From Bacilli bacterium (GTDB lineage: Bacteria > Bacillota_I > Bacilli_A > RF39 > UBA660), in the NCBI GenBank assembly GCA_016295795.1, contig JAEDKN010000001.1, forward strand, positions 6,845 to 70,844: 64,000 bases of DNA, given 5' to 3'. The first letter of the stretch is position 1. Each line of letters begins with the position of its first letter. The translations under genes were made by a program, and so were the position numbers. Shown piece after piece: positions 40,406 through 60,058 of this stretch. Below the pieces are notes generated by a model. It did no database searches. It was not told where the DNA came from and saw nothing but the letters and a program-made list of their open reading frames with translations.

Positions 40406-40423
40406 TATTTCCCGGGAAATAAT
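40406..40423. promoter_or_regulatory. Copy 1 of the perfect palindrome TTATTTCCCGGGAAATAA, in the mnmE-mnmG intergenic region
   Basis: Direct reading. It lies about 74 bp upstream of the mnmG start codon. Confidence 0.5.
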
Positions 40424-40481
40424 TTTTGAAATTAAATTATATTTTATGAAGCATAACTACACTTATCTGAATTAATTTTTT

Positions 40482-41837
40482 TTACTTTCCTAGGCAAAAC
40501 TGACTAAATAATTGATCTATTAATTCTTCGTCATATGTCTCTCCTATTATTTCTCCTAGTTTTTCCCAAGCACGTTTAATATCTATTTCTATCATATCTA
40601 CTGGCACTTGATTTTCTATTCCTATTTCTACCTCTTCTAAAATATAATTTGCCTCTTTTGCAAGCGAAATTTGTCTTACATTGCTGAGATACATATAATC
40701 TTCATGTTCTAATTCATTTAAATTGAACAATTCTGTTATTTTTTCTTTTAAGGAATCAATTCCTCCTAAATCTACTGTATTTGTATATATAATATTTTTA
40801 TATTGAATTTTTTCAATATTAATTTTTCTTTCTAAGTCATTTTTATTAATTACAACAATTGTCTTTTTCTCTTTACAAGCTTCTAATATTTTTTCGTCTT
40901 CTTCTGAAAGTTCTTCGTTATTATTTAATACTAAAATTACTAAATCAGCTTCTAATATCAATTTTAAACTTTTTTCTACTCCTAGTTTTTCAACAACATC
41001 TTCTGTTTCACGAATTCCCGCAGTGTCTATAATATTTAACGCTACGCCATTAATTGTAATACTTCCTTCTACAGTGTCTCTAGTCGTTCCCTCAATATCT
41101 GTAACTATAGCTTTCTCTTCATCTAATAATCTATTTAAAATACTGCTTTTTCCAACATTTGGTTTACCAATTATAATAGTCTTAATACCAGTAGTCAAAA
41201 TTTTTCCGTTTTCCGATTCATTAATAATTTTTGATAATTTTCTTTTAATTTCTATTATTTTAGGTTTAATTATATCATTCGTCATAACAATTGCATCATC
41301 ATATTCGGGATAGTCGATATTTACTTCAATCGACGCTAGAAGTTCTAATATTTCTTGTCGAAGGTCTCTAATAATATTACCAACATAACCATTTAATCCA
41401 TTGATAGCTACTTTTCTTTTAGATTCACTTTTTGAACTAATCAAATCCATTACTGATTCTGCTTGCGTTAAATCAATTCTACCATTCAAAAATGCACGCT
41501 TAGTAAATTCTCCGGGTTCTGCCAATCTTGCTCCATTATTTAGTACTATTTCTAATACTTTATTTGTAGTAGAAATGCCTCCATGACAATTTATCTCAAC
41601 AATATCTTCTGTTGTAAAAGTTTTTGGAGATTTCATAACTGTTACTAAAACTTCATCTATTATCTCATTTTTTTCTTTAATATTACCATAATGTATTGTA
41701 TGAGAATCTACTTTTTCCAAATCTTTTCCCTCAAAGATCTTATTTACAATCTTAATTGAGTCTTTTCCACTTACTCTAATAATAGAAATAGCACCTACAC
41801 CTATAGTAGTTGAAATTGCAGCAATTGTATCAGTCAT
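40482..41837 (-). CDS. mnmE: tRNA modification GTPase MnmE (TrmE)
   Basis: G-domain motifs GKPNVGKSS, DTAG and NKND, with the C-terminal CLGK motif. Confidence 0.96.
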   Translation of the reverse strand: MTDTIAAISTTIGVGAISIIRVSGKDSIKIVNKIFEGKDLEKVDSHTIHYGNIKEKNEIIDEVLVTVMKSPKTFTTEDIVEINCHGGISTTNKVLEIVLNNGARLAEPGEFTKRAFLNGRIDLTQAESVMDLISSKSESKRKVAINGLNGYVGNIIRDLRQEILELLASIEVNIDYPEYDDAIVMTNDIIKPKIIEIKRKLSKIINESENGKILTTGIKTIIIGKPNVGKSSILNRLLDEEKAIVTDIEGTTRDTVEGSITINGVALNIIDTAGIRETEDVVEKLGVEKSLKLILEADLVILVLNNNEELSEEDEKILEACKEKKTIVVINKNDLERKINIEKIQYKNIIYTNTVDLGGIDSLKEKITELFNLNELEHEDYMYLSNVRQISLAKEANYILEEVEIGIENQVPVDMIEIDIKRAWEKLGEIIGETYDEELIDQLFSQFCLGK

Positions 41838-41891
41838 AAAATAAACCTCCTTTTCATATTATATTAACATTTTTTTATATAAAAAGAAAGC

Positions 41892-42506
41892 TTATTTGCT
41901 TTCTATGTATTTTACTATCACCGCTCTGTTAGGTTCCTCGCCTACACTCTCAGTTTTTATGTTATTGTAATCAGATAAAATAGTATGTACTACTCTTCTT
42001 TCATAAGAATTCATTGAGTCCAATTTTACATCTGTTTTAGTTTTTACAACATCTTTTGCTATATTTTTAGCTAATCTTTCAATTTTATTTTTATGTTTTA
42101 ATTTATATTCACTTACATCTAGAACAAATGGAAAATAAAATCCTAATTCATTATATAAGTATTGTTTTAAAATATTATTTAAAGCTTCAATTGTTCGTCC
42201 TTGTTTACCAATTAAAATATTATTATTATCACTAAAAATAGTAACAGTTGTTATTCCTTCTCGTTCTTTAATTTCAAACTTTGTTTTTATTCCCATCAAA
42301 TTTATTATTTTTTCTAATTTGTTTTTTATTTCTGAAATAATTTCTTCTTTTGTTATAACCTCAATTTCAACTTTTTTAGATTTAAATATTCCACTTTTTA
42401 TTTCTATTTCGTTAAAGAAAAATTCACTTTCTTTACACTTTAAAGTCTCTGCTGCTAACATTTTTGCTTCTTCTAAATTTTTTCCTATAAAACTATTTTT
42501 TTTCAT
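41892..42506 (-). CDS. jag: RNA-binding protein KhpB/Jag (KH plus R3H)
   Basis: A C-terminal R3H motif (ERRVVHTIL...GEEPNRAVIV). It lies downstream of yidC. Confidence 0.88.
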   Translation of the reverse strand: MKKNSFIGKNLEEAKMLAAETLKCKESEFFFNEIEIKSGIFKSKKVEIEVITKEEIISEIKNKLEKIINLMGIKTKFEIKEREGITTVTIFSDNNNILIGKQGRTIEALNNILKQYLYNELGFYFPFVLDVSEYKLKHKNKIERLAKNIAKDVVKTKTDVKLDSMNSYERRVVHTILSDYNNIKTESVGEEPNRAVIVKYIESK

Positions 42507-43416
42507 TACTGTTTCCTCTTTTCACTAGTAAATTTTGGAATATTGTAAATAAATTTGTAGTTATCCAATATATATTTAACGCAGATGTCATGAACACTGA
42601 CATTATTATTATCATAATAACCATAACTCGGTTCATTGTCTTTGCTTGATTGTTATCACCCATTGCAGTAGCATTAAGTTTAAATGAAAAATATGTAGTA
42701 ATACCAACGACACCGATTAATAAAATATATAATAATTTCCCGCTTTGTATTGCAGTAAGAGGTGTCGTTCCTAATTGAAAAGTTAAGAATGTTTCTTCAA
42801 AAATTGCAGGTACCCTGTTTATTGCTTCTAAAAATCCAATAAATAGTGGCAATTGCAAAAATGAGAACAAACAACCTGATACAGGATTAATATTATATTT
42901 TTTATAAATTAACATCATTTCTTGATTTTTTTTCATAAGAGAATCTTGATCTGTTTTATCAAGATATTTTTTTTCAAGCTTATCTAAGTCTGGCTTAGCT
43001 TTTTTTAATAATTCAGATTGTAGTGCTGTTTTTCTTGTAATTGGAAATGCTACTAATCTTATTAACAAACTTACTATTATTAAACCTAATCCATAATTTT
43101 TTACTAAATCACCTATTGTCAAAATTAACCAAGCTAATGGTTTTACGAATATGGAGGTCCACAATCCTTCATAACCACCAGAGGCAATTTTAAACTCCTC
43201 ACATTCCGGCAACTTTTCTAAATCTATTTTATTTTCTTCATATATTTTTATTGTATCCTCATCTTTAGGTCGACATAAAATATTTTCAGTTAAACTCTGT
43301 CCTGTTGTAGGATTTTTAACTACCTTGTCATCTTTAGTTAATGATTTAGTGCAGCCCGTTAATAATATTAATATTAATAATACTATTGTTATCTTTCTCT
43401 TTAATGTGTTTTTCAT
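42493..43416 (-). CDS. yidC: Membrane protein insertase YidC/SpoIIIJ (lipoprotein)
   Basis: LLTGC lipobox and the YidC 60-kDa IMP domain. It lies downstream of rnpA. Confidence 0.93.
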   Translation of the reverse strand: MKNTLKRKITIVLLILILLTGCTKSLTKDDKVVKNPTTGQSLTENILCRPKDEDTIKIYEENKIDLEKLPECEEFKIASGGYEGLWTSIFVKPLAWLILTIGDLVKNYGLGLIIVSLLIRLVAFPITRKTALQSELLKKAKPDLDKLEKKYLDKTDQDSLMKKNQEMMLIYKKYNINPVSGCLFSFLQLPLFIGFLEAINRVPAIFEETFLTFQLGTTPLTAIQSGKLLYILLIGVVGITTYFSFKLNATAMGDNNQAKTMNRVMVIMIIIMSVFMTSALNIYWITTNLFTIFQNLLVKRGNSNEKK

Positions 43417-43755
43417 TTATTTCTCCTTTTGGTTTATTTTCTTTATTAGAAATATAAAATTTTGTTCTAAATTGCTAAAATCAATTTCTAAACAAGCTTT
43501 CCTTAATATTATAATATAATCTAAATTTTTTTTGTAGTATTTTTTATTGTTGTCAATAATATTTCTTATTCTTCTTTTATATTTATTTCGATAAACCGCA
43601 TTACCTATTTTTTTTCCAACAGATATTCCAAAACGATATTTATCAAGATTATTTTTTTTATAATATATAATAAAATATTTATTTTTAATTTTCTCTCCTG
43701 TATTCAATATACTATTAAATTCATAATTTTTTTTAACTATATTGTTTTTTTTCAT
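43417..43755 (-). CDS. rnpA: Ribonuclease P protein component
   Basis: A 112-aa basic protein. KKNYEFNSIL...RNKYKRRIRN matches the RnpA RNR-like motif region. Confidence 0.9.
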   Translation of the reverse strand: MKKNNIVKKNYEFNSILNTGEKIKNKYFIIYYKKNNLDKYRFGISVGKKIGNAVYRNKYKRRIRNIIDNNKKYYKKNLDYIIILRKACLEIDFSNLEQNFIFLIKKINQKEK

Positions 43756-43822
43756 AGGGTTACTCCTTTTTCAATATACAAATATATTATATCAAAAAAA
43801 AAGCCACATTTACAGTGGAATA

Positions 43823-43942
43823 TTAAACTAATTTTTTTCGTCCTTTTTTTCTACGATTATTAATTACTTTACCTTTTATTCTCGAAAAAAATCCATGTTT
43901 CTTTGCTTTTTTTCTATTATTTGGTTGATACGTTCTTTTCAT
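43823..43942 (-). CDS. rpmH: 50S ribosomal protein L34 (missed by the ORF track because it is under 60 aa)
   Basis: My hand translation of the minus strand gives [39 protein letters not shown] (39 aa). This is the canonical L34 sequence, positioned just upstream of rnpA. Confidence 0.93.
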
Positions 43943-43955
43943 TTCTACACCTCCA

Positions 43956-44246
43956 AACTAAAGTCTCTCCTATTATAATAGTCTTATATACTCTTTGTCA
44001 ATCAATTTTTTAATTTTATTTATTCCACAAAATTAACAACGCTGTTGAAATTTTTTTCAATAGTTGTTTATTTAAATTTGTGGAAAATGTGGAAAATTGA
44101 TTATTTTTCTTGTTAATTAGGGTTTTTATTGTGAATAATTCTGTGACTTTGTTGTTAATAAAATTTTATTTTACATTTATTCTTTATTTTTTCAACAACT
44201 TAAGTTACAATATCAATAGATTTACAATTCTTTTATCCAGGGGGCG
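43956..44246. promoter_or_regulatory. oriC upstream module: a DnaA-box cluster between rpmH and dnaA
   Basis: TGTGGAAAA (rc TTTTCCACA) occurs twice in tandem at 44068-44076 and 44077-44085. TGTGAATAA (rc TTATTCACA) is at 44131-44139. Weaker boxes are at about 44011 (TTATTCCACA) and 44232 (TTATCCAGG). The position relative to dnaA is conserved. Confidence 0.6.
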
Positions 44247-44255
44247 GTGATAAAA

Positions 44256-45626
44256 ATGGATGAGAAAAAAATTTGGAGTACTGTTCTTTCTAAAATCAAA
44301 GAAGAAATTAATTCTTTATCTTTTCAAACGTGGTTTGAGGAAACAGAATTATACAGATTAGATAAAAATGTAGCGAAAATTATTGTCCCTTATGCAATAC
44401 ATAAAAACCATATTATGAATAATTACCACGATATAATCGTAGAAAATCTATATGAGTTAACCAAAGTTACATATGAACTAGAATTATTATTAAAAGAAGA
44501 TATTAAAGAAGATAAAATTGAGAATATTAAAGAAATAAATAATTTTAATACCGAAACCGTCAGCATAGAAAATAATTTTATTGATTCAAATTTAAATTCA
44601 AAATATACATTTGAAAATTTTATAGTAGGGAATAGTAACAAATTTGCACATGCTGCTGCATTAGCTGTTGCTGAAAACCCTGGTAAGATGTATAATCCAC
44701 TATTTATTTATGGAAATAGCGGACTAGGTAAAACACATTTAATGCATGCTATTGGCAATTATATAGTAAAAAATAGTAACAAAAAAGTGTTATATGTTAC
44801 CAGCGAACAATTTGTTTCAGATTTTATAGGAATTAATAAAAAGGATGAAAGTGGAACAAATTTCAGCTATGTGGACTTTTTTAAACAGAAATACAGAAAT
44901 ATTGATGTTCTCATTATAGACGATATACAATATTTAGGTGGTGCAACCGAAACACAAAAGGAGTTTTTTCATACTTTTAATACTTTATATGGAGATAATA
45001 AGCAAATTATAATTTCTTCAGATAGATCTCCAGATGATTTAAAAATTTTAGAGGATCGTTTAAGAACTAGATTCTGTTGGGGATTACCCGTTGATATATA
45101 TCCTCCAGATTTTGAACTTAGAGTTGCAATATTAAAAAAACGCATTCTTGGTGAAGCCATAAACAAGGAAATACCAGAACAAGTAATAGAATATATGGCT
45201 TCAAATTTAGGTAGTGATATTAGACAACTCGAAGGTGCAGTTACTAGATTGGTAGCTTATTCAACAATTATGGGATCTGAAATTGATTTAAATCTTGCGA
45301 TGGAAGCATTAAAAGATTATATAAATAAAGGTATAAGTGAAAAAAATAACGTAAACAAAATTCAAAAAGTTGTGGCAGAATATTTTCAAATTTCTGTCGA
45401 AGATTTGAAATCAAAAAAAAGAAATTCTAATATTTCATTTCCACGACAAATTGCAATGTACCTGTGCAGAAAATTTACTGATGAATCTTTTCCTAAAATA
45501 GGTATAGAATTTGGAGGAAAAGATCATTCAACTGTTATGCATTCATGTGAAAAAATTGAAAAGGAAATTAGAATTAACAAAGATTTAGCAGATACAATAG
45601 ACAAATTACAAAAAGAAATTCACTAA
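44256..45626 (+). CDS. dnaA: Chromosomal replication initiator DnaA
   Basis: A Walker A motif GNSGLGKTHL, an AAA+ sensor region, and a C-terminal DNA-binding domain (ISFPRQIAMYLCRKFT). I favour the start MDEKKIWS at 44256 (the ORF track gives 44247). Confidence 0.96.
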   Translation: MDEKKIWSTVLSKIKEEINSLSFQTWFEETELYRLDKNVAKIIVPYAIHKNHIMNNYHDIIVENLYELTKVTYELELLLKEDIKEDKIENIKEINNFNTETVSIENNFIDSNLNSKYTFENFIVGNSNKFAHAAALAVAENPGKMYNPLFIYGNSGLGKTHLMHAIGNYIVKNSNKKVLYVTSEQFVSDFIGINKKDESGTNFSYVDFFKQKYRNIDVLIIDDIQYLGGATETQKEFFHTFNTLYGDNKQIIISSDRSPDDLKILEDRLRTRFCWGLPVDIYPPDFELRVAILKKRILGEAINKEIPEQVIEYMASNLGSDIRQLEGAVTRLVAYSTIMGSEIDLNLAMEALKDYINKGISEKNNVNKIQKVVAEYFQISVEDLKSKKRNSNISFPRQIAMYLCRKFTDESFPKIGIEFGGKDHSTVMHSCEKIEKEIRINKDLADTIDKLQKEIH

Positions 45627-45766
45627 ATTGTTGAAAAAAAATATATATTAACATTTTTTCCACAAATTAAAATTTTCTCAAAGACCTAAAATTAAAGAAA
45701 AATTATAGTTATTAACAGTTTCCACTGTAATAATATTAAAAATATATTAAGAAAGAAGGAATAATT
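45627..45766. promoter_or_regulatory. oriC downstream module: an AT-rich unwinding region plus a DnaA box between dnaA and dnaN
   Basis: A TTTTCCACA box at 45656-45664. A near-pure A/T tract (AAAAAAAATATATATTAACATTTTTT) lies at 45635-45660, and a weaker box, TTTCCACTG, is near 45718. Confidence 0.5.
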
Positions 45767-46891
45767 ATGAAAATTAAAATTAAAAAAGATTTATTATTAG
45801 AAGGGTTAAACAAAGTGTCAAGAGCAATTTCAACAAAAAATTTAATTCCAATATTATCTGGTATTAAATTTGATTTATCTTTAGAAGGATTAACATTAAC
45901 AGCTTCTGACAATGATATTACAATTCAGACTTTTATCCCCATAGAAAACGATAATATGTATATAGAAAAGGAAGGAAGCATAATAATACAAGGAAAATAT
46001 ATATTAGATATAGTACGAAAATTACCAGATGAATATATAAATATAGAAGTAATAGATGAATTAAAAATATTGATATATGCAGAAAATAGTGAATTTAATT
46101 TAAATGGCATAAATAAAAAAGAATATCCTAATATTTCTTTAGAAAATAGTAAGACTTTTGTAAAAATAAACAATAAAGTGTTCAAAACACTGATAAATCA
46201 AACAGCCTTTGCAACATCTAATGATGAATCTAGGCCAATTCTTACTGGTATAAATATAAAAATTACTGGAGATATTTTAGAATGTAGTGCTACAGATTCA
46301 TATAGACTATCAAAAAAACAAGTTAAAATAGATAATGTTACAAATGAAAATTATAACATTATAATACCAGGAAAGAATATAACTGAATTCATTAAAATAT
46401 TAAATGATAACAATAATGATCTTGAGATACATATATTTAATAATAAAGTTTTATTTAAACAAGAAAATCTATTATTTCAATCTAGGTTAGTTAGTGGAAA
46501 TTATCCTAATGTTAACAATTTAATTCCAAATGATTCATTTTTAAAAGTAACTGCTAATTTATCAGATTTATATGATGTCATAGATAGAGCTAGTATTCTA
46601 ACTTCTGATAAAGAAAAAAATATAGTAACATTAGAAACAAATAAAAATGTATTGATTGTAAAATCATCTTCAGCAGAGATTGGTAGAGTTGAGGAAAAAA
46701 TGATAATAAGTAAAGATAATGATGAAGAAATTAAAATTTCTTTTAGTGCAAAATATATGATGGATGCTTTAAAATCTTTTGAAGGTGATATGGTTGAAAT
46801 GTTATTCGTTGGAGAAGTGAAACCAATTATAGTAAAAGATGTTGAAGATCCTAATTTAATTCAATTAGTTTTGCCAATTAGAACTTATTAA
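45767..46891 (+). CDS. dnaN: DNA polymerase III beta sliding clamp
   Basis: At 374 aa with a three-domain clamp pattern, immediately downstream of dnaA. Confidence 0.95.
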   Translation: MKIKIKKDLLLEGLNKVSRAISTKNLIPILSGIKFDLSLEGLTLTASDNDITIQTFIPIENDNMYIEKEGSIIIQGKYILDIVRKLPDEYINIEVIDELKILIYAENSEFNLNGINKKEYPNISLENSKTFVKINNKVFKTLINQTAFATSNDESRPILTGINIKITGDILECSATDSYRLSKKQVKIDNVTNENYNIIIPGKNITEFIKILNDNNNDLEIHIFNNKVLFKQENLLFQSRLVSGNYPNVNNLIPNDSFLKVTANLSDLYDVIDRASILTSDKEKNIVTLETNKNVLIVKSSSAEIGRVEEKMIISKDNDEEIKISFSAKYMMDALKSFEGDMVEMLFVGEVKPIIVKDVEDPNLIQLVLPIRTY

Positions 46892-46918
46892 AAATAACAA
46901 TTTTGTTATTTTTTTTTA
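46892..46918 (+). terminator. Rho-independent terminator of dnaN
   Basis: A hairpin AAATAAC-aatttt-GTTATTT followed by a T9 run. Confidence 0.5.
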
Positions 46919-47035: not shown

Positions 47036-47497
47036 ATGAATTTTTATGAAATTAATGAAGAAACATTAGCAATAATACCAATTGATTATGAAAAAACAAA
47101 AGTTATTGAATTAAATAACGAATACATTGTAGATAAAAAAGCTTATCAAGTTATGGATGAAAGTTGTCAATATTATGGAAGTACATATAAAGGAAGACTT
47201 ACTGCAGCAAAAAAAATACTAGAATGTGCATACAAAATACCAATATTAGTTGAAGAAACTCAAAGTATTATATTTTTTCCAACTAAATCATCTTTAGAAG
47301 AAGATTGTTGCTGGATTAATTTTAATCAAATAAAAAAAATAGAAAAAAGAAATAATGATACGTTAGTTACTTTTAATAATAATAAAGAAATATTATTTGA
47401 TATTTCTAAGTTATCTATTGAAAATCAAATATCAAGATCAACAAGATTAGGTTATCTAATTCAACAAAGATTAAAAAAACAACAAAATATAAATTAA
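47036..47497 (+). CDS. comK: ComK-family protein (competence transcription factor homologue)
   Basis: ETLAIIP...QVMDESCQYYGSTYKGR...KIPILVEETQSIIFFPTKSSLEEDCCWINFNQIK...NDTLVTFNNNKEILFDISKLSIENQISRSTRL. Each block aligns with a B. subtilis ComK block (ATIAVLP, QIVDRSCRFFGSSYAGR, KPPIMVDPSNQIFLFPTLSS...CGWISHVHVK, DDTEVTFSNGKTMELPISYNSFENQVYRTAWL). Confidence 0.75.
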   Translation: MNFYEINEETLAIIPIDYEKTKVIELNNEYIVDKKAYQVMDESCQYYGSTYKGRLTAAKKILECAYKIPILVEETQSIIFFPTKSSLEEDCCWINFNQIKKIEKRNNDTLVTFNNNKEILFDISKLSIENQISRSTRLGYLIQQRLKKQQNIN

Positions 47498-53074: not shown

Positions 53075-53102
53075 TAAAAAAATAATTTTATTAAATACAA
53101 AA

Positions 53103-53149
53103 TTATTTCCCGGGAAATAAATTATATAAAAATATTTCCCGGGAAATAT
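53103..53149. promoter_or_regulatory. Copies 2 and 3 of the ATTTCCCGGGAAAT palindrome, in tandem (TTATTTCCCGGGAAATAA at 53103-53120 and ATATTTCCCGGGAAATAT at 53132-53149)
   Basis: Direct reading. The centres are 29 bp apart, about 50-95 bp upstream of the ffs -35 element and just before the gyrA terminator. Confidence 0.5.
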
Positions 53150-53153
53150 TTTT

Positions 53154-53179
53154 ATGTTTCACGTGAAACATGTTTTTTT
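53154..53179 (+). terminator. gyrA terminator: the palindrome ATGTTTCACGTGAAACAT followed by a T7 run
   Basis: A perfect 18-bp palindrome followed by GTTTTTTT. Confidence 0.6.
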
Positions 53180-53197
53180 GAAATATAAAATAAAGTC

Positions 53198-53226
53198 TTG
53201 CAAAAATATAAAAAATAATATAATAT
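53198..53226 (+). promoter_or_regulatory. SigA-type promoter of the SRP RNA (TTGCAA-17-TAATAT)
   Basis: -35 TTGCAA at 53198-53203, a 17-nt spacer, and -10 TAATAT at 53221-53226. The predicted +1 lies about 7 nt downstream, where the SRP RNA helix begins. Confidence 0.5.
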
Positions 53227-53232
53227 AATTAT

Positions 53233-53310
53233 CGATGCAACAATCATGGTGGAACCAGGTCAGAATCGGAAGATAGCAGCCTTAACACTTAATGATTGTG
53301 TGCATCATTT
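53233..53310 (+). ncRNA. ffs: Small (4.5S-type) signal recognition particle RNA
   Basis: It contains ACCAGGUCAGAAUCGGAAGAUAGCAGCC, matching the universally conserved SRP domain IV (ACCAGGUCAGGUCCGGAAGGAAGCAGCC). The flanking arms GAUGCAACAAUCAU and AUGAUUGUGUGCAUC pair. Its position between gyrA and tadA is the B. subtilis scr locus. The ORF-track ORF 53292..53771 starts inside it. Confidence 0.7.
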
Positions 53311-53327
53311 ATTATGGAGTGATGAAT

Positions 53328-53771
53328 ATGGATGATCGCTTTATGAAAATAGCTTTATTAGAGGCCAATAAAGCGTATAACAACTCTGATGTACCAGTGG
53401 GAGCCATTATTGTATATAAAAATAAAATTATAGCAAAGGGATATAATAAAAAAGAAAAAAATCAAAATGTTTTGAAACATGCAGAATTGATAGCAATAGA
53501 TAAAGCTTGTAAAAAAATGAAAAGTTGGCGTTTGAACGAATGCGTTATTTATACCACATTATTTCCTTGTCCAATGTGTGCGGCAGCAATTCAACAAGCA
53601 AGAATATCAAAATTGGTTTATTTAGATAATTCTAATAATAAATTTATTACTCATATATCCAGTAATATATTACATAACAAAAAAAATAATCATCAAGTGA
53701 GAATAGAAAAAATTAATATACATTCTGATTTGATTAGGACTTTTTTTAACGAGCTAAGAGTTAATAAATAA
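53328..53771 (+). CDS. tadA: tRNA-specific adenosine deaminase TadA
   Basis: CDA zinc motifs HAELIAI and PCPMCAAAI. I trimmed the start to MDDRFMKIALLEA at 53328, which follows a GGAGTG RBS and clears the SRP RNA. Confidence 0.9.
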   Translation: MDDRFMKIALLEANKAYNNSDVPVGAIIVYKNKIIAKGYNKKEKNQNVLKHAELIAIDKACKKMKSWRLNECVIYTTLFPCPMCAAAIQQARISKLVYLDNSNNKFITHISSNILHNKKNNHQVRIEKINIHSDLIRTFFNELRVNK

Positions 53772-53801
53772 TGTTTCACGTGAAACATTATTTATTTTTT
53801 T
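53763..53801 (+). terminator. tadA terminator: the 34-bp perfect palindrome AATAAATAATGTTTCACGTGAAACATTATTTATT followed by a T-run
   Basis: Direct reading. It overlaps the tadA stop codon and shares the TGTTTCACGTGAAACA core with the gyrA terminator. Confidence 0.6.
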
Positions 53802-53880
53802 CTTAAAATTCAATTTCTTGATATGAAATGAAAATAAAAAGTGATATAATATATGTATCTTTGTTGAAAGGAGGAAAAAA

Positions 53881-55425
53881 ATGCTTTATCAGAGCTTATA
53901 TAGAAAATATAGACCTTCAAGATTCGATGAAGTGTATGGACAAAATGTTGCTAAAAAAATACTTGTTAATTCTATAATCAATAATCGAATTTCACATGCA
54001 TACTTATTTTTCGGACCTAGAGGAACGGGAAAAACATCAATAGCAAAAATGTTTTCTCGAATTATTAATTGTTTAGATATAAAAGATGGAGAATGCTGTG
54101 AAAAATGTGAAAATTGTATTAATAGCAAAGATAAAAATTGCATTGATATTATAGAAATTGATGCTGCTTCTAATAATGGTGTAGATGAAATAAGAGAACT
54201 AAAAAACAAAATAAACTTAGTTCCTAACAATTTAAAATATAAAGTTTACATTATAGATGAGGTACATATGCTTTCAACCGGAGCATTTAACGCTTTATTA
54301 AAAACGCTTGAAGAGCCACCAGAACATGTTGTTTTTATACTCGCAACAACTGAAATATATAAAGTTCCTTCTACAATAATTTCTAGATGTCAAACAATTG
54401 AATTTAAAAAAATAGACAATAATAGTATATTTGAAAGACTTAATGAAATTTCAAAAAAAGAAAATATTAACATATCCGAGGAAGCTATAAGAGAAATAGC
54501 TAGAAATTCAAATGGTGGAATGAGGGACGCTATAGGAATATTAGATAAGGTTTTTTCTTATGCTAATGATGATGTAAAAATAGATGATGTTAAATCTGTA
54601 TTAGGACTTATAACTGAAAATGAAATCAATCAATTTGTTTCGTCTTTACTAGAAGGAGATTTTACTTTTTTACTAAAAAAAATTGATGAATATTCTGATT
54701 CTGGAAAAGATCTTTTTAAGATACTTAATGATATTATTTTTAAAATAAAAAATATGATAGTTTTAGAAGAAAAGTACGAATTGATAGAAATTTTAAATAA
54801 AATTAATGAATATCATGTAAAAATGAAATTTTCTCATAATCCTGAAATTATATTTCAAATGTTGATATTAGATTTGACTGCAACAGGTTGTAAAACAAAT
54901 GTTCGAAAAAATATTTCCCGGGAAATATTTTCTGAAAATGAAAAGAATAAAACGGCAAATACTATATCTACTTATATTATATATGCGAGAAAAAATAATT
55001 CTTTTGCTAACGCTGATAAAAATCTTTTAAATGAGATAAAGCAAAAGTGGAAAAATTTAAATAAGTATATATTTGATAAAAATATTGGGGCATTTATATG
55101 TGATTTGGAGGATAGTGTACCTGTTGTTTGCAGTAAAAACAACTTGATGATTTGCACAGAATATTCCTCATCTTCGAACAAAATAAATGAAAGTCTTGAA
55201 ATTTATGAAGATATTCTTCTAACAAAATTTGAAATTGATCAAAAATTAATTGCTGTTGATAAGAAGGAATGGGGTGAGTTGAAGGCAGAATATTTAAGAA
55301 AACTGAAAAACAATGAAAAATACGAATATATTCTTGAAAATGATTCCCAAGCGGAAAAAAATACACAAGAAAATGATATAATAGATCGAGCCAAAGATTT
55401 GTTTGGCGAATTAATAATTAATTGA
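53881..55425 (+). CDS. dnaX: DNA polymerase III subunit tau/gamma
   Basis: YRPSRFDEVYGQ, a Walker A motif GPRGTGKTS, a Zn module (CEKCENC), and the SRC motif (IISRCQ). Confidence 0.95.
   Translation: MLYQSLYRKYRPSRFDEVYGQNVAKKILVNSIINNRISHAYLFFGPRGTGKTSIAKMFSRIINCLDIKDGECCEKCENCINSKDKNCIDIIEIDAASNNGVDEIRELKNKINLVPNNLKYKVYIIDEVHMLSTGAFNALLKTLEEPPEHVVFILATTEIYKVPSTIISRCQTIEFKKIDNNSIFERLNEISKKENINISEEAIREIARNSNGGMRDAIGILDKVFSYANDDVKIDDVKSVLGLITENEINQFVSSLLEGDFTFLLKKIDEYSDSGKDLFKILNDIIFKIKNMIVLEEKYELIEILNKINEYHVKMKFSHNPEIIFQMLILDLTATGCKTNVRKNISREIFSENEKNKTANTISTYIIYARKNNSFANADKNLLNEIKQKWKNLNKYIFDKNIGAFICDLEDSVPVVCSKNNLMICTEYSSSSNKINESLEIYEDILLTKFEIDQKLIAVDKKEWGELKAEYLRKLKNNEKYEYILENDSQAEKNTQENDIIDRAKDLFGELIIN
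54910..54929. promoter_or_regulatory. Copy 4 of the palindrome (AATATTTCCCGGGAAATATT), located inside the dnaX coding sequence
   Basis: Direct reading. It is in frame, encoding N-I-S-R-E-I-F at DnaX codons 344-350, and is immediately preceded by an A AAA AAT heptamer. Confidence 0.5.
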
Positions 55426-55438
55426 GGAGAGATAATAT

Positions 55439-55732
55439 ATGAATATGCAAGCTATAATGAAACAAGCACAAACTTTACAAAAGGAAATGATGAAAACCAA
55501 AGAAGAAATAGACAATACTGAATTTGTTGGAAATAATTCTTTTGTAACTGTTGTTACAAATGGGAAAAAGGAAATAAAGAAAATTAAAATTGAAACAGAA
55601 AAATTAGAAAAAGAAGATATAGAAATATTAGAAGATATGATTATGGTTGCTGTTAATAATGCATTTAAAAGTGTTGATAAACTTACTGAGGAAAAAATGG
55701 GAAAATATGCAAATATCCCTGGACTTTTTTAA
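55439..55732 (+). CDS. ybaB: Nucleoid-associated protein YbaB/EbfC
   Basis: A 97-aa protein (MQAIMKQAQTLQKEM...) between dnaX and recR. Confidence 0.9.
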   Translation: MNMQAIMKQAQTLQKEMMKTKEEIDNTEFVGNNSFVTVVTNGKKEIKKIKIETEKLEKEDIEILEDMIMVAVNNAFKSVDKLTEEKMGKYANIPGLF

Positions 55733-56328
55733 TGTATCCAAAAAGTATTAAAAATTTGATTGAAAGTTTTAAAATGCTTCCTGGAATAGGTGAAAAAACA
55801 GCTGAGAGGATGGCGTTTTTTATACTAGATTTTGATGAAGAAAATGTAGAATTCTTTTCAGAAAGTTTATTGAATGCAAAAAATAATATCCGTAAATGCA
55901 GTATTTGTAATAATTTTACTGATAATGATATATGTGATATTTGTGCTGATAAAACACGTAATAATGAAATTTTATGTATTGTAGAAGATCCTAAAAATAT
56001 ATATATGTTTGAAAAAAATGGTGTTTTTAATGGATATTATCATGTCATTGAAAATTTGATCTCGCCATTGGATGGTATAAATCCTGAGGATATTGGTTTA
56101 GAAAAATTATTAAAAAGGATTAAAGAAAACAACTTTAAAGAGATAATAATTGCTGTTAAGCCGAGCATTGAAGGGGAAACTACTAGTTTATATATAAAGC
56201 GAGTTTTGGAGGGGTTAAATATTAAAATTACTCGTATTGCTAGTGGAATACCAATTGGAGCAGATATGGAATATATTGATGCATTGACTTTAGAGAGGGC
56301 TATTCTAGATAGAAAAGAATTAGAATAG
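55732..56328 (+). CDS. recR: Recombination protein RecR
   Basis: HhH motif LPGIGEKTAERMAF, a C4 zinc finger (CSICNNFTDNDICDIC), and a Toprim domain. Confidence 0.95.
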   Translation: MYPKSIKNLIESFKMLPGIGEKTAERMAFFILDFDEENVEFFSESLLNAKNNIRKCSICNNFTDNDICDICADKTRNNEILCIVEDPKNIYMFEKNGVFNGYYHVIENLISPLDGINPEDIGLEKLLKRIKENNFKEIIIAVKPSIEGETTSLYIKRVLEGLNIKITRIASGIPIGADMEYIDALTLERAILDRKELE

Positions 56329-56365
56329 AATAGTTTTTTCTTCATAAAATTAAACAGGTGATTTT

Positions 56366-56545
56366 ATGTTAAAACTAATTAAAAAAATTTTATTTGCAGT
56401 GTTTTTATTATATAGTTTCAATTTGATATCAGTTAATTTTAATATAATAATTCCGATTAATTTTATAACTGTTTTATTAGTTGCTTTACTTGATTTGCCT
56501 GGAATGATAACATTATTAATATCTATGATAACTATATTTAGTTGA
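56366..56545 (+). CDS. bofA: Pro-sigma-K processing inhibitor BofA (59 aa, missed by the ORF track)
   Basis: My hand translation gives MLKLIKKILFAVFLLYSFNLISVNFNIIIPINFITVLLVALLDLPGMITLLISMITIFS*. It has two TM helices and the BofA-like IPIN...G.LG/PG core, with an AGGTG RBS 7 nt upstream. Its position after recR matches the B. subtilis recR-yaaL-bofA arrangement. Confidence 0.6.
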   Translation: MLKLIKKILFAVFLLYSFNLISVNFNIIIPINFITVLLVALLDLPGMITLLISMITIFS

Positions 56546-56559
56546 TAAGGGTGAAATTT

Positions 56560-57381
56560 ATGAATGATGAATTTAATAAATTATTAAATAGTATTTCTAA
56601 AACTAACAAGATTGGACATGCCTTCTTATTTGAGGTTGATGATGATTATTCGACAGATAAATCTATTTATTTTATAAAAAAAATATTAGAGAAAGATATT
56701 GATGACAGAAATAAATTAGAAGATATTTATAGAAGAATTGACAATAATATTTTTGAGGATTTAAAAATAATTAGATCGTTAGATAATACAATAAAGAAAG
56801 AACAGATAATTGAATTAAAATCAGAATTTAAAAATAAGTCTTTAAATTCTATAAAAAGATTTTACATAATAGAGTATGCAGAATATTTAAATCCTGCAGC
56901 TGCAAATTCTCTTCTAAAATTTTTGGAAGAACCTGATGATGAGATTATTGCTATATTGGTTACTAAAAACATATATAGTGTTTTAGAGACAATAATTTCT
57001 CGTTGCCAAACTGTTAATTTAAATAGATATGTAACTCGTGTGGATGATGATAGCTTTTCTGAAGCTTTAAAATATATAAAAATTTATGAAAATAATGGTA
57101 ATAGGGCCGTTGCTTATTTATCAGAATTATATAATTTAAAAATAGAAGATATAAAAAAATATATTGAAAGTTGGATGTTAATTTATAAAAATATTTTAGA
57201 TATTTTATTGAATAAAGAGTCATCGAATAGCTCTGATTTTATTGAAGAATATAGGGAAATATCTACCAAAAATAAAATTGAAAATATAATAAAAAAGATA
57301 AAAAAAGTTGAAAAAATGGAAAGACTTATTAATTCTAATGTTAATGTTAGGGTGATTTTGGATCAACTATTTATTGATTAG
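56560..57381 (+). CDS. holB: DNA polymerase III delta-prime subunit (HolB)
   Basis: GHAFLFE and ISRCQTV (SRC) motifs. I trimmed the start to MNDEF at 56560. The gene is followed by ricT, as holB-yaaT is in B. subtilis. Confidence 0.75.
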   Translation: MNDEFNKLLNSISKTNKIGHAFLFEVDDDYSTDKSIYFIKKILEKDIDDRNKLEDIYRRIDNNIFEDLKIIRSLDNTIKKEQIIELKSEFKNKSLNSIKRFYIIEYAEYLNPAAANSLLKFLEEPDDEIIAILVTKNIYSVLETIISRCQTVNLNRYVTRVDDDSFSEALKYIKIYENNGNRAVAYLSELYNLKIEDIKKYIESWMLIYKNILDILLNKESSNSSDFIEEYREISTKNKIENIIKKIKKVEKMERLINSNVNVRVILDQLFID

Positions 57382-57392
57382 GGAGGTAAAAC

Positions 57393-58196
57393 ATGAAACA
57401 AAAAGTGGTGAAAATATCTTTTTTAAATTCAAATAAAACATATTTCTTTTCTAACAATAATTTAGACCTAGAAGCAGGTGAGAGTGTAATTGTCGAATCA
57501 GACAGAGGAATTCAGTTTGGAACGGTTAATAGCAAAATTTTTGAATTAGATGAAAACAAGATAATGAAACCCTTGAAAAAAGTTATTAGAAAAGCTACAA
57601 AGGAAGATATCAAATTATACGAAAAAAATAAGAGTGACTCTAATGTCGCTTTAAACAAAGCTAAATCTTTGGCAAAATCATTGGATTTGAAGATGAATAT
57701 ATTAAATGCTAATTTTACTCTTGATAGAAATCAATTAATTTTTAATTTTATTGCAGATGACCGAGTTGATTTTAGAGAATTAGCAAAAAAATTAGCTTCA
57801 ATTTATAAAACTAGGATTGAATTGAGGCAAATAGGTGTTAGAGATAAGGCAAAAGAAATAGGAGGCCTTGGTCCTTGCGGAAGATTTTTATGTTGCAACT
57901 TATTTTTAAATGATTTTGAAACGGTTTCTATAAATATGGCAAAAAATCAATATATTTCATTAAAGCCAGACAAAATTAATGGTATTTGTGGTAGATTACT
58001 ATGTTGTCTGAATTATGAAGATGAGCAGTATACTGAATTAAAAAAAGATTTTCCAAATATAGGAAGTATAATTAAATATAAAAATATAACAGGGAAAGTT
58101 ATTAGTCACAATTTGTTTAAAAGAACATTTGATATAGAAACAGCTGATAAAACTATTATAAATTTGGAATTGAGTAATTATGAAAGTAATAAATGA
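57393..58196 (+). CDS. ricT: PSP1-domain protein RicT (YaaT), stage 0 sporulation/RNase Y regulator
   Basis: A PSP1 C-terminal domain with Cys clusters (GPCGRFLCCNLF and GICGRLLCC). Confidence 0.85.
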   Translation: MKQKVVKISFLNSNKTYFFSNNNLDLEAGESVIVESDRGIQFGTVNSKIFELDENKIMKPLKKVIRKATKEDIKLYEKNKSDSNVALNKAKSLAKSLDLKMNILNANFTLDRNQLIFNFIADDRVDFRELAKKLASIYKTRIELRQIGVRDKAKEIGGLGPCGRFLCCNLFLNDFETVSINMAKNQYISLKPDKINGICGRLLCCLNYEDEQYTELKKDFPNIGSIIKYKNITGKVISHNLFKRTFDIETADKTIINLELSNYESNK

Positions 58197-58899
58197 TTTG
58201 CTTGGATATAAAAATTTAAAAATAGTTCAAGATACTGATTGGTTTAGTTTCTCTTTGGATTCAGTATTACTTCCTAATTTTGTAACTTTAAATAAAAACG
58301 TTAAAAAAATTTTAGATATAGGAACTGGAAATGCACCGATTCCATTAATATTATCTACTAAAACTGATGCTGAAATATATGGAATAGAAATTCAGAAAGA
58401 AGTTTACGAAATGGCAAGGGAAACTATAGAATTGAATTCGTTGGAATCAAAAATAAAACTAATAAATGATGATGTAAATGAGATAGACAAGTATTTCAAA
58501 CCCGAAACATTTGATGTGATTCTTTCAAATCCTCCATATTTTAAACTAAATGGAAAATCAAAATTAAATGAGGTTAACACTAAGGCTATTGCAAGACACG
58601 AAATTTCGTTAACGCTCGATCAGTTATTGACTGTTTCGTCTAAACTTTTAAAAAATAAAGGAAAATTTGCTATGGTACATAGGGTTGATAGACTAACTGA
58701 AATATTAAGTTTAATGAAAGAAAGAAATATTGAACCAAAAAGAATCAAATTTATATTTCCAAAAGAAAACACTACTTCAAATCTTTTTTTGGTGGAGGGT
58801 GTTAAAAATGCAAATTCAGGAATTAAAACTATAAATTATATAATTGTACATACTGAGAACGGAAAATATACTGAAGAAGTAATGAAATGTTTCGAATAG
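58180..58899 (+). CDS. SAM-dependent methyltransferase, YabB/TrmN6-like tRNA (adenine-N6)-methyltransferase
   Basis: ILDIGTGNAPIPLIL and an NPPY motif. The gene follows ricT, as yabB does in B. subtilis. Confidence 0.7.
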   Translation: MKVINDLLGYKNLKIVQDTDWFSFSLDSVLLPNFVTLNKNVKKILDIGTGNAPIPLILSTKTDAEIYGIEIQKEVYEMARETIELNSLESKIKLINDDVNEIDKYFKPETFDVILSNPPYFKLNGKSKLNEVNTKAIARHEISLTLDQLLTVSSKLLKNKGKFAMVHRVDRLTEILSLMKERNIEPKRIKFIFPKENTTSNLFLVEGVKNANSGIKTINYIIVHTENGKYTEEVMKCFE

Positions 58900-58908
58900 G
58901 AGGATATT

Positions 58909-59748
58909 ATGAGACAAAAGAGTTATGATGGAACTAATTCACTTTACCTTATTCCTACTCCCGTCGGAAATATGGATGATATAACAAAAAGGGCGTTAGA
59001 TACATTAAAAATGGTTGATTTAATACTTTGCGAAGATACTAGAGTAACCTCAGAATTATTACGAAAATTTAATATTAAAAAGAAATTAATACATTGTGAT
59101 GATCATAATGAAAACGATTTAAAACAAAAGATTTTAGAAAAATTAAATGATGGGTTAAATATAGGACTTGTGACAGATAGAGGAACTCCTATAATAAGTG
59201 ACCCTGGATATAAAATTGTACAATTTATATCTAAGAATGGCTATAATGTTATTAGTTTGCCAGGACCTACTGCTTTTGTCCCTGCTTTGACAATGTCTGG
59301 AATTAACCCTGCCCCTTTCTTGTTTTATGGATTTTTAAATAGTAAAGAATCAAGAAGAGTAAAAGAACTTGAATCTTTGAAAAAATTACCTTATACTATC
59401 ATTCTATATGAAGCGCCTCATAGAATTTATGATATGTTAAAATCATTACTTGAAGTATTTGGTAATAGGAGGATTGCTTTATGTAGAGAAATTAGTAAAA
59501 AATATGAAGAAGTTATTCGTGGAACCCTTGAAGAAGTATTAGAAATAGCAGATACTTTGAAAGGAGAAATGGTTGTTGTTGTAGAAGGAAATTTACAACA
59601 AGAAGATTTTTCCACTATGACTGTTTTGGAACATATTAATCTTTATTTAGAAGATGGCATGACCGAAAAAGAAGCTATTAAGAAAGTAGCGATAGAAAGA
59701 GATGTACCTAAATCTGTTATATATAGAGAGTATCATATTAATAATTAA
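58909..59748 (+). CDS. rsmI: 16S rRNA (cytidine1402-2'-O)-methyltransferase RsmI
   Basis: LYLIPTPVGNMDDITKRALDTLKMVDLILCEDTRVT, the tetrapyrrole-methylase fold N-terminus of RsmI. Confidence 0.9.
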   Translation: MRQKSYDGTNSLYLIPTPVGNMDDITKRALDTLKMVDLILCEDTRVTSELLRKFNIKKKLIHCDDHNENDLKQKILEKLNDGLNIGLVTDRGTPIISDPGYKIVQFISKNGYNVISLPGPTAFVPALTMSGINPAPFLFYGFLNSKESRRVKELESLKKLPYTIILYEAPHRIYDMLKSLLEVFGNRRIALCREISKKYEEVIRGTLEEVLEIADTLKGEMVVVVEGNLQQEDFSTMTVLEHINLYLEDGMTEKEAIKKVAIERDVPKSVIYREYHINN

Positions 59749-60036
59749 TTTTTTAGGTAATATATATATTAAAAGATTAAATATTTATGTAATTGATTCA
59801 AATTCATATAGTCTTGTGAGATCGCTATTAATTGCTAAGGAATGTGATAATTGTAATAATGAAACTCTAGGTTTCAGAAAAGATTATGGTCCTTGAGATT
59901 TATAATATTCAAAAATTACAGAATATACTAAATTTAAATGAATAGGCAACAACAACAGATGAATTATAATACAGAAAATAAATTTATTGTAAGTTGGGTA
60001 GTAAGTAATAAGACTATTTAAACTAATTTAGATTAA

Positions 60037-60058
60037 AATTATTTCCCGGGAAATAATT
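60037..60058. promoter_or_regulatory. Copy 5 of the palindrome (AATTATTTCCCGGGAAATAATT), 20 bp upstream of the pth start codon
   Basis: Direct reading. It lies between the putative pth promoter region and the RBS (GAGGTG at 60067-60072). Confidence 0.5.

Follow-up and report, generated by a model that had tools for sequence, protein, structure and literature searches.

Five identical palindromes around the replication origin of a Bacilli bacterium are very probably binding sites of a variant Noc system

The Noc protein of Bacillus subtilis recognises a palindromic Noc-binding site (NBS), TATTTCCCGGGAAATA (Wu and Errington; PMC4331003; PMC7383237; PMC8429893), and was crystallised with the duplex 5'-GGATATTTCCCGGGAAATATCC-3' containing this sequence (Jalal 2020, PMC7383237). 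According to the latter work Q173 reads A1 and R201 reads C6, a single K at 179 or 184 is enough, and K184 is almost invariant among Noc proteins. In B. subtilis the protein forms a clamp that exposes an N-terminal amphipathic helix, so that DNA is tethered to the membrane and Z-ring assembly is blocked (Adams 2015, PMC4331003; Jalal 2021, PMC8429893). Conservation of the helix was reported for every Noc homologue examined, and the NocNdelta10 variant lost nucleoid occlusion function in B. subtilis (Adams 2015, PMC4331003). In Staphylococcus aureus the Noc ChIP-seq core is the same as the B. subtilis NBS core, and the membrane-associated protein has 41 sites over ~1.4 Mb, only in the origin-proximal half, with spreading of 8–10 kb and no arraying with parS (Pang 2017, PMC5540599). 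The ParB–parS (Spo0J/ParB) system is similar in that it has a paralogous CTP-dependent clamp and a 16-bp palindrome near the origin, parS differing from NBS at two positions per half-site. A functional analogue is SlmA–SBS of Escherichia coli, in which palindromic sites lying away from the terminus label the nucleoid for the control of division (cited in PMC4331003), but SlmA belongs to the TetR family and the SBS sequence is unrelated.

The window, a stretch of 64,000 nt that was analysed at its full length, was found to carry five exact copies of the palindrome ATTTCCCGGGAAAT (Table 1), and 5/5 copies match the 16-mer TATTTCCCGGGAAATA. The window palindrome is letter-for-letter identical with the published NBS of B. 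subtilis and S. aureus. The five palindromes are thus very probably NBS, acting as specific nucleation sites for Noc, an orthologue of which is encoded in the window. The motif is already known, and the system is a variant of the Noc system. The initial annotation had stated that no known Firmicute site matches, which was wrong, the motif being exactly the NBS; its proposal of a dimeric helix-turn-helix protein as binder was correct, with Noc the partner predicted from sequence.

Table 1 Features of the window. Positions are those of the whole stretch.
Feature	Coordinates	Strand	Context or basis
NBS copy 1	40407..40420 (16-mer 40406-40421)		mnmE-mnmG spacer, 74 bp upstream of mnmG; exact match
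NBS copy 2	53105..53118		31 bp past gyrA stop (53074), first of tandem pair 29 bp apart; exact match
NBS copy 3	53134..53147		centre 22 bp from centre of parS 53155-53170; exact match
NBS copy 4	54913..54926		within dnaX codons 345-349 ATT TCC CGG GAA ATA (I-S-R-E-I); exact match
NBS copy 5	60041..60054		rsmI-pth spacer, end 24 nt before pth ATG; exact match
noc orthologue, 400 aa	36505..37707	-	NCBIfam TIGR04285, structure matches, specificity residues
parA (soj-type ATPase)	35601..36392	-	
canonical parB	34736..35623	-	N-terminal ParA-interaction peptide RRALGMGLEELF, parS-type R173
dnaA	44247..45626	+	TIGR00362, 523 bits; marks origin region
Perfect parS TGTTTCACGTGAAACA	53155..53170		between NBS copy 3 and ffs promoter region
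Perfect parS TGTTTCACGTGAAACA	53772..53787		directly past tadA stop codon

The count of five perfect palindromes made from the letters alone was right, and their non-chance nature was borne out by 100 dinucleotide-preserving shuffles, none of which contained ATTTCCCGGGAAAT (chance expectation none). The extended A/T palindromic flanks and the gene context (mnmG, gyrA–ffs, dnaX, pth) were also described correctly, and the coordinates agreed within 1–4 nt, the offset arising because the spans first given were those of the extended palindromes. In the window, whose GC content is 0.24–0.31, the hexamer CCCGGG occurs only at the five copies, against a mean of 0.64 and a maximum of 3 in the shuffles. 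Near-copies with one or two mismatches were not found in the window, and matches with three mismatches numbered four, versus 3.8 by chance.

The replication origin (oriC) lies inside the window, as indicated by a change in the sign of the GC skew near 44 kb (40–44 versus 44–48 kb bins) and by dnaA, with one-mismatch DnaA boxes at 44079, 44088 and 44130. All five NBS are located between -4 and +16 kb of dnaA, at -3.8 kb (copy 1, left of the dnaA start and 2.7 kb from noc), +8.9 (two copies), +10.7 and +15.8 kb, and the 40 kb further left contain none. Inside the window alone this clustering is of modest significance (P about 0.03–0.09). Perfect parS sites number two (+8.9 and +9.5 kb), where chance would give 0.09; like the origin, both had been overlooked in the initial annotation. 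Copies 2 and 3 occupy the space between the gyrA stop and ffs (53224-53319, Rfam RF00169).

The noc gene lies in the synteny mnmE-mnmG-rsmG-noc-parA-parB, of which rsmG-noc-parA-parB is the canonical order, as in B. subtilis, and its start is preceded by GGAGG 7 nt upstream of the ATG and by an in-frame stop 6 codons upstream. The protein comprises a ParB N-domain, an HTH DNA-binding domain, an insert of ~160 aa that is disordered, plus a domain at the C-terminus (CTD). It scored 298.4 bits against TIGR04285 ('nucleoid occlusion protein'), just below the curated cut-off of 315, and its closest solved structures are those of Noc (7ng0, 7nfu, 7ol9; E 1e-64 to 1e-53), with Spo0J behind. By itself the CTD matches positions 212-255 of TIGR04285 and, by this match and the AF2 model, is predicted to be Noc-type, as in B. 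subtilis. Residues Q131, K137, S142 and R159 are the equivalents of Q173, K179, K184 and R201; the Q and R readers, the permissive K and the CTP-binding motifs GERR and ENLQR are shared with B. subtilis Noc, from which the window's Noc type differs in having S/A/T at the K184 equivalent. Q-K-(S/A/T)-R was present at the four specificity positions in 106 of the 120 nearest Noc homologues, the four positions not being all readable by pattern search in the remaining 14, and GERR and ENLQR were present in 120/120. Unlike ParB, the protein has Q for R173 and R for G201, and it is without the N-terminal ParA-stimulating peptide.

Further differences from B. subtilis Noc concern the insert, which lies between the DNA-binding domain and the CTD and contains conserved short motifs, e.g. 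IIGGSGLLAGM, and the N-terminus, since the window protein starts ~25 residues later and has no amphipathic helix. An N-terminal membrane-targeting helix was absent from the orthologue and from 120/120 of its nearest homologues and, as NocNdelta10 is non-functional, classical nucleoid occlusion by membrane tethering is doubtful here. The distribution of sites differs as well, ~70 NBS being scattered over most of the B. subtilis chromosome and those of the window falling within ~20 kb of oriC, interleaved with parS. Two features of this system are atypical, namely a Noc without membrane anchor and NBS that are clustered with parS and not scattered.

Conservation was analysed in related loci of uncultured gut Bacilli, labelled L001, L002, L004, L036, L038, L039, L042-L045 and L048. 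Across 584 kb of related loci with low GC, 33/33 copies matched the 16-mer, and 33 of the 35 CCCGGG hexamers there are NBS. Comparison of orthologous regions, suggested by the initial annotation, disclosed that the site is kept in the mnmE-mnmG spacer of L001, L002 and L004, as a perfect NBS at the same offset, ~2.7 kb upstream of noc, always intergenic and the sole CCCGGG of each locus. Relatives that share this Noc type but are more remote had no NBS within 10 kb of noc. The tandem NBS after gyrA recur in L036 (two copies 26 bp apart), and NBS arrays hold the post-gyrA position in L038, L044 and L048. Arrays of NBS and parS upstream of ffs-tadA-dnaX were present in L036, L038, L042, L043, L044 and L048, and arrays in relatives reach six NBS in 1.3 kb. 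In the gyrA-ffs-tadA-dnaX region of relatives the two site types are interleaved, with recurring NBS–parS centre-to-centre spacings of 22, 29–31 and 58 bp, and 41% of NBS are at most 60 bp from parS versus 2.8% under random placement. L044 also shares the parS directly past the tadA stop. DnaA-box-like motifs adjoin parS in the arrays of L042, L044 and L048, and in L048 NBS continue for at least 10 kb past dnaX. The bias to intergenic DNA claimed at the outset is strong, with 26 of 33 copies (window plus relatives) intergenic against a background of ~10% intergenic DNA.

The copy within dnaX falls in the poorly conserved DnaX linker and contains codons that are rare in the window's genes (CGG, 2/353 Arg; TCC, 18/549 Ser). 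DnaX identity among the species compared is only 38–59%, and an NBS was found in the linker at +1032 to +1134 nt in L036 and L042 (frame 0) and in L044 and L045 (frame 1), with one mismatch in L042 and L044, while L039 has a parS instead of the NBS at this spot, in frame 2. The NBS are under selection as DNA, given their orthologous places, the occurrence of the dnaX-internal site in three reading frames and its very rare codons.

By analogy with the work on B. subtilis and S. aureus, a Noc dimer would dock on the 16-bp palindrome, and this would trigger CTP binding and the closing of the N-domains into a clamp, which would then slide to flanking DNA and produce kilobase-scale Noc domains. The origin-proximal region would be covered by both Noc and ParB clamps. 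As to the output, the best guess is that Noc would mark origin-proximal DNA and coordinate division or replication with segregation, acting via the short motifs of the insert and not an N-terminal anchor. The link of S. aureus Noc to replication initiation would suit sites adjoining oriC.

A tentative but serious possibility is that NBS are bound by Noc, yet the system is a second origin-proximal centromere-like module beside ParB–parS and not one of chromosome-wide nucleoid occlusion; DnaA boxes would join it in some species, and its role would be origin organisation, recruitment of partners by the linker motifs or control of initiation. The membrane-targeting helix missing in all 120 homologues, the location of the five NBS and their absence from the 40 kb further left, the NBS/parS arrays of relatives, the DnaA-box-like motifs that abut parS in three of them and the restraint of initiation by S. 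aureus Noc (PMC5540599) argue for it. On the other side, the run of NBS beyond dnaX in L048 is compatible with a broad distribution along the arm, a hydrophobic linker motif could stand in for the membrane anchor and restore classical function, and DnaA boxes were not found at the window's own NBS/parS array. It seems unlikely that the canonical ParB of the clade has NBS as a second target beside parS, NBS then being partly or wholly alternative ParB loading sites. The window ParB has S at the G201-equivalent position, in a sequence (ISMSHAR) found in every clade ParB, versus G in all outgroup ParBs, and T or S occupies 201 in most dual-specificity variants (Jalal 2020, PMC7383237), so ParB might touch NBS too; the fixed close spacing of NBS and parS and the parS inside dnaX of L039 are consistent with this. 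However, parS-specific variants tolerate S201 too, binding to NBS as a rule requires K/R at 179 or 184, where the window ParB has M and N, R173 favours parS, and the same genomes maintain a dedicated Q...R paralogue.

The initial annotation had favoured an operator for an uncharacterised dimeric HTH repressor of growth genes (mnmG, ffs/tadA, dnaX, pth-mfd), growth-phase or sporulation-linked, a reading that found no support and is highly improbable, so that of the earlier interpretation the non-chance origin, the dimeric HTH target and the intergenic bias stand, and the unknown motif and the repressor do not. Dyad symmetry, intergenic bias, the copy near the pth start and the presence of KorB, a ParB-family transcriptional repressor, among the distant structural matches of the Noc orthologue would agree with a repressor, and the CodY box and similar Firmicute operators are likewise AT-rich dyad sites of 14–16 bp with a dimeric HTH binder. 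The CodY box, however, differs in sequence and sits at defined promoter positions, whereas the motif here is exactly the NBS and has a dedicated ParB-family partner, the cognate Noc, encoded nearby. Its geometry to promoter-like elements is inconsistent: at ffs NBS are upstream of the -35, at pth copy 5 follows the best promoter-like match (59943-59970) by ~65 nt and would thus fall in the pth 5' UTR, no promoter-like element was found in the mnmE-mnmG spacer, and one copy lies inside an ORF. No NBS at the pth offset was found in the relatives sampled, and their multi-copy arrays, interleaved with parS in one spacer, point to chromosome-organising loading sites and not operators. A selfish or structural repeat, be it REP/MITE-like, the hairpin of an intrinsic terminator or a restriction-modification target of SmaI/XmaI type preserved by chance, is scarcely conceivable. 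The copies are perfect palindromes, mostly intergenic, and as RNA the two tandem copies past gyrA, taken with the parS, form a strong fold (-29.9 kcal/mol, z = -5.6), but a copy on its own has a weak fold (-8 to -10 kcal/mol, z about -1.3), and none gave a terminator-like call. Moreover, the 16-mer is invariant across species, whereas drift or covariation is typical of hairpins and mobile repeats, degenerate copies are lacking, and the conserved ATTT/AAAT arms would be needless for a restriction-modification target. The alternative of a drifting selfish repeat, raised in the initial annotation, was rejected because NBS are conserved at orthologous positions. Last, parS 53155-53170 forms as RNA a hairpin followed by a U-run, and may for this reason double as the gyrA terminator.

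A pattern search of the window returned five exact copies of ATTTCCCGGGAAAT, each of which matches the 16-mer TATTTCCCGGGAAATA and is bordered by palindromic A/T flanks. The initial annotation had considered five such copies to be beyond chance and the hexamer CCCGGG to be rare in DNA of this composition, and both statements hold: ATTTCCCGGGAAAT did not occur in 100 dinucleotide-preserving shuffles, the shuffle mean for CCCGGG was 0.64, and the window has no CCCGGG hexamer outside the five palindromes. Degenerate copies were not detected in the window at 1–2 mismatches, while the four matches with 3 mismatches compare with 3.8 expected by chance. The further statement that the palindrome matches no known Firmicute site was incorrect, as the sequence is that of the published Noc-binding site (NBS). 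The duplex co-crystallized with the DNA-binding domain of B. subtilis Noc was 5'-GGATATTTCCCGGGAAATATCC-3' (PMC7383237), Noc 'nucleates on 16 bp NBS sites' (PMC8429893), and ChIP-seq of S. aureus Noc gave the same core consensus (PMC5540599). On the basis of their sequence and of the predicted cognate protein, the five palindromes are assigned to the known NBS family. The motif itself is a textbook NBS, and what had been flagged as an unknown operator is explained and already known in kind.

The genomic contexts originally described for the palindromes were confirmed. One NBS lies in the mnmE-mnmG spacer, 74 bp upstream of mnmG, a pair 29 bp apart lies after the gyrA stop codon and before the SRP RNA gene, one is within dnaX, and one precedes pth, with its end 24 nt before the start codon. 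Overlooked in the initial annotation was the replication origin, which is inside the window, as seen from the sign change of the GC skew near 44 kb and the position of dnaA, so that the view extends from -44 to +20 kb around oriC. All five NBS are located between -3.8 and +15.8 kb of oriC, a span of 19.6 kb, and none was found in the 40 kb of the window further left. This clustering is only modestly significant in the window alone (P = 0.03–0.09 for the span); given the arrays present in relatives, an origin-proximal concentration of NBS is plausible.

Two perfect copies of the ParB centromere site parS (TGTTTCACGTGAAACA), also overlooked previously, bracket ffs-tadA. The centre of the first is 22 bp from an NBS centre, and the second comes directly after the stop codon of tadA, an arrangement identical to that in L044, a locus from a related uncultured gut member of the Bacilli. 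A T-run (catgttttttt) comes after the hairpin formed by the parS behind gyrA, and no other terminator-like site was found after gyrA on the + strand; this parS may therefore double as the gyrA terminator.

Table. Features of the window and of related loci (L-numbers, from uncultured gut Bacilli). For NBS of the window and for single hexamers, one position is given.
Locus	Feature	Position	Strand	Remarks
Window	L31-Firmicutes ribosomal protein leader	3681-3711	-	Rfam 36.8 bits, gathering score 33.3
Window	parB	34736-35623	-	
Window	parA	35601-36392	-	
Window	noc	36505-37707	-	400 aa
Window	NBS	40407		upstream of mnmG
Window	dnaA	44247-45626	+	
Window	ComK-family protein gene	47036-47497	+	Pfam PF06338, E = 7e-42
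Window	NBS	53105		tandem pair
Window	NBS	53134		tandem pair
Window	Hairpin of parS behind gyrA	53154-53182		
Window	parS	53155-53170		
Window	SRP RNA gene (ffs)	53224-53319		Rfam RF00169
Window	parS	53772-53787		
Window	NBS	54913		within dnaX
Window	NBS	60041		upstream of pth
L036	NBS			tandem pair like that of the window
L038	Array	8831-9322		119-bp tandem repeat, ~4.5 units, one parS-like site and one NBS each, alternating
L038	CCCGGG, not NBS	11992		
L039	parS-only arrays	9216-11194		variant TGTTCCACGTGAAACA, including 45-bp tandem units
L042	NBS/parS region	8470-9430		
L044	Array	350-1490		~1.5 kb with six NBS and four composite NBS-parS units
L044	Composite unit			NBS-aatTTATCCACAa-parS, four repeats
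L048	Array	8284-9400		seven NBS and seven parS
L053	CCCGGG, not NBS	11971		

The nearest relatives in the genome collections are Clostridium sp. CAG:710 and gut 'uncultured Bacilli' MAGs, the Noc proteins of which are 60–67% identical to that of the window. Clostridium sp. CAG:710 may be a member of the GTDB order RF39, but a literature search found no paper linking the two and this placement is given no weight here. In these relatives a perfect NBS, the sole CCCGGG in each 21-kb locus, occupies the same spacer ~2.7 kb upstream of noc, and the comparison of orthologous positions proposed in the initial annotation found the positions kept. The dnaX-internal NBS uses the codons TCC-CGG, of which CGG accounts for only 2 of the 353 arginine codons in genes of the window. 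The poorly conserved DnaX linker also carries an NBS, at a comparable offset, in L036, L042, L044 and L045 (with 1 mismatch in L042 and L044), these copies being read in two reading frames, and a parS occupies the same place in L039 in the third frame. Low-GC related loci totalling 584 kb contain 35 CCCGGG hexamers, 33 of which are NBS, and the 16-mer is identical in 33/33, such that for annotation purposes CCCGGG in very low-GC Bacilli is essentially always an NBS. The DNA of the NBS itself is under selection. The two remaining hexamers, in L038 and L053, have CCCGGGTTATTTTA as their common context and lie about equally far from dnaX, probably in a conserved coding segment.

Intergenic DNA, about 10% of the total, holds 26 of the 33 NBS, though many of these are in the same arrays and therefore the counts are not independent; 41% of NBS are within 60 bp of a parS, versus 2.8% under random placement. 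The arrays in relatives occupy the spacer upstream of ffs-tadA-dnaX, and the 119-bp tandem repeat of L038, with a parS-like site and an NBS in each unit, suggests that they grow by segmental duplication. DnaA-box-like motifs (TTATCCACA, TTATTCACA) abut parS in L042, L044 and L048; unlike in these relatives, no DnaA boxes were found at the NBS/parS cluster of the window. The arrays of L039 contain only parS, and its DnaX linker has parS rather than NBS; L039 may have exchanged NBS for parS or may represent a lineage lacking Noc. Among the dnaX-centred metagenome loci, retrieved with a 10-kb flank, a ParB-family gene was seen in L090 only, because noc is ~16 kb from dnaX and hence beyond the flank. 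Co-occurrence of NBS and noc could be assessed in the window and in L001, L002, L004, L014 and L034.

The initial annotation had favoured an operator for a growth-phase regulator. In consensus scans, to which these placements are limited, the ffs sites are upstream of -35. For pth, the best promoter-like match lies ~65 nt upstream of the NBS, no promoter-like element was detected at mnmG, and a further NBS is intragenic, in dnaX. The sites have no fixed geometry relative to -35/-10 elements, and the relatives carry multi-copy NBS/parS arrays; the identity of the motif with the NBS also speaks against a transcription-factor operator, and this reading was abandoned. Arrays together with the 41% versus 2.8% proximity to parS bear the hallmark of loading sites for clamps that organise the chromosome, rather than of a regulon.

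Palindromes could also form hairpins or terminators, be targets of a restriction enzyme, or represent a selfish repeat of the REP/MITE type, the alternative that the initial annotation had entertained. Folding of single NBS is weak (-8 to -10 kcal/mol, z about -1.3) and yielded no terminator-like calls, the only T-run being that after the parS hairpin behind gyrA. On the evidence of the conserved orthologous positions, the rare codons and the invariant 16-mer, a simple hairpin, a bare restriction target and a drift-prone selfish repeat are rejected, the last also in view of the lack of degenerate copies.

A candidate for the cognate protein is encoded close to the origin, where the minus-strand gene order is mnmE, mnmG, rsmG, a gene for a ParB paralogue, parA and parB. 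This corresponds to the gidA-gidB-noc-soj-spo0J arrangement of B. subtilis, and the order rsmG-noc-parA-parB is also found in L001-L010. The best NCBIfam match of the paralogue was TIGR04285 ('nucleoid occlusion protein') with 298.4 bits, which is below the curated cut-off of 315, and ParB of the window scored 243 bits on the same model. Among solved structures, Noc of Geobacillus and of B. subtilis ranks closest (E 1e-64 to 1e-53), with Spo0J behind.

The choice between NBS and parS, which differ at two bases per half-site, is set by four positions, 173, 179, 184 and 201 in B. subtilis Noc numbering (Jalal 2020, PMC7383237). In that work Q173 reads A1 and R201 reads C6, either contact needing at least one lysine at 179 or 184, and K184 was described as 'almost invariable' in Noc. 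The window protein reads GKSQSAVSNKLRLLSL...ISERHAR, giving Q, K, S and R at the four positions; three of the four are therefore kept, with Q131, K137 and R159 equivalent to Q173, K179 and R201. The deviation is at the K184 position, which is S/A/T throughout the subfamily (readable in 106 of the 120 nearest homologues). As one lysine at 179 or 184 suffices (PMC7383237), the residue set is regarded from the sequence as functionally adequate for NBS despite this deviation.

The CTP-binding motifs (GERRxRA box and ENLQR) are intact in the ParB-type N-domain. Residues G59-E60-R61-R62 and N94, the positions of B. subtilis G86, R89 and N121, do not vary in alignments A1 and A2 and occur in 120/120 nearest homologues. 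On their own, the C-terminal 47 aa match TIGR04285 positions 212-255 (E = 7e-7), that is, the Noc-type C-terminal dimerisation domain, modelled by AF2 as a confident small domain of a helix and two strands (pLDDT 81-87). By synteny, specificity residues, CTP motifs and C-terminal domain, the paralogue is assigned as the Noc orthologue, and it is very probably the protein predicted to load at the NBS.

This protein has atypical features. It begins with MENEVRYLYLDDIIPNRFQPR, and its residue 3 is the first to align, pairing with residue 26 or 29 in Noc proteins of solved structure; the start is supported by GGAGG 7 nt before the ATG and by an in-frame stop six codons upstream. The N-terminal amphipathic membrane-targeting helix (about 10-15 aa) and the spacer of classical Noc are missing. 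The short N-terminus is common to 120/120 nearest homologues, in which the PNRFQPR motif starts at offset 14-19, compared with 39 in B. subtilis from the structure alignment. A ~160-residue insert with AF2 pLDDT below 50 separates the DNA-binding domain from the C-terminal domain and gave no NCBIfam match when scanned alone. It contains the conserved short motifs IIGGSGLLAGM and NNLYKNF, with a VDINKIR-like motif in relatives. Relocation of the amphipathic anchor to IIGGSGLLAGM, the sole hydrophobic patch of the insert, was considered and rejected, since this segment is hydrophobic and not amphipathic, with a low hydrophobic moment and low AF2 confidence. Lacking the N-terminal helix, the protein is doubtful as a classical membrane tether; contact with a membrane or a partner would most obviously be made by the conserved linker motifs. 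Owing to the missing helix and the score just under the TIGR04285 cut-off, the system is classified as a variant of Noc-NBS and not as a standard member. Literature searches returned no helix-less Noc, no NBS-parS arrays and no Noc in Mollicutes-like lineages, which does not amount to proof of novelty.

The ParB of the window reads GKSRSHITNMLGLLNL...ISMSHAR, with the parS-type R173. ISMSHAR and NMLGLL are also read in the canonical ParB of L001-L010 and L027, so that ParB of this clade has S at the equivalent of G201, and G replaces the usual R of 'LRLL'. Among orthologues of ParB, G201 was reported to be 'absolutely conserved', whereas the dual-specificity variants of the published mutational scan often had S/T at 201 (Jalal 2020, PMC7383237). 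All outgroup ParBs among the retrieved loci have G at 201.

By analogy with model organisms, a Noc dimer would dock on an NBS, close into a clamp in a CTP-dependent manner, and slide away to cover kilobases of DNA on either side. Noc and ParB clamps would then both be present around dnaA, over about -4 to +16 kb or more. B. subtilis has about 70 NBS scattered over most of the chromosome (PMC4331003) and S. aureus has 41 Noc loci across the origin-proximal half (PMC5540599), whereas the five NBS of the window are close around oriC; models of Noc are built on these two species, in which the N-terminal amphipathic helix is essential and the sites are scattered, while the large natural subfamily described here is helix-less with a long disordered insert. 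A narrower role as an origin module, in place of chromosome-wide nucleoid occlusion, is put forward tentatively. Somewhat less likely still is a distinct mode in which Noc would act as a second origin-bound CTP clamp cooperating with ParB, and not as a chromosome-wide membrane tether, an idea drawn from the anchor-less, one-lysine Noc, the NBS/parS arrays (some with DnaA boxes) and the G201S change of ParB. Its outputs might be origin organisation, partner recruitment via the linker motifs, or initiation control, and such a mode could be a secondary specialisation or a state near a ParB-to-Noc evolutionary intermediate.

The remaining interest, which is moderate, lies in an uncultured gut lineage having a variant Noc and an architecture in which NBS and parS are interleaved. 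If confirmed, N-terminal membrane tethering would not be universal to Noc, and the lineage would offer a natural system in which two paralogous CTP clamps share one DNA stretch. It would also bear on the evolution of Noc from ParB, because of the small difference between the half-sites of NBS and parS and the swap at the dnaX-internal spot of L039.

Last, the window contains a ribosomal protein leader of the L31-Firmicutes type and, between dnaN and recF, a gene for a ComK-family protein, where a competence regulator would not be expected in a genome that is small and low in GC.
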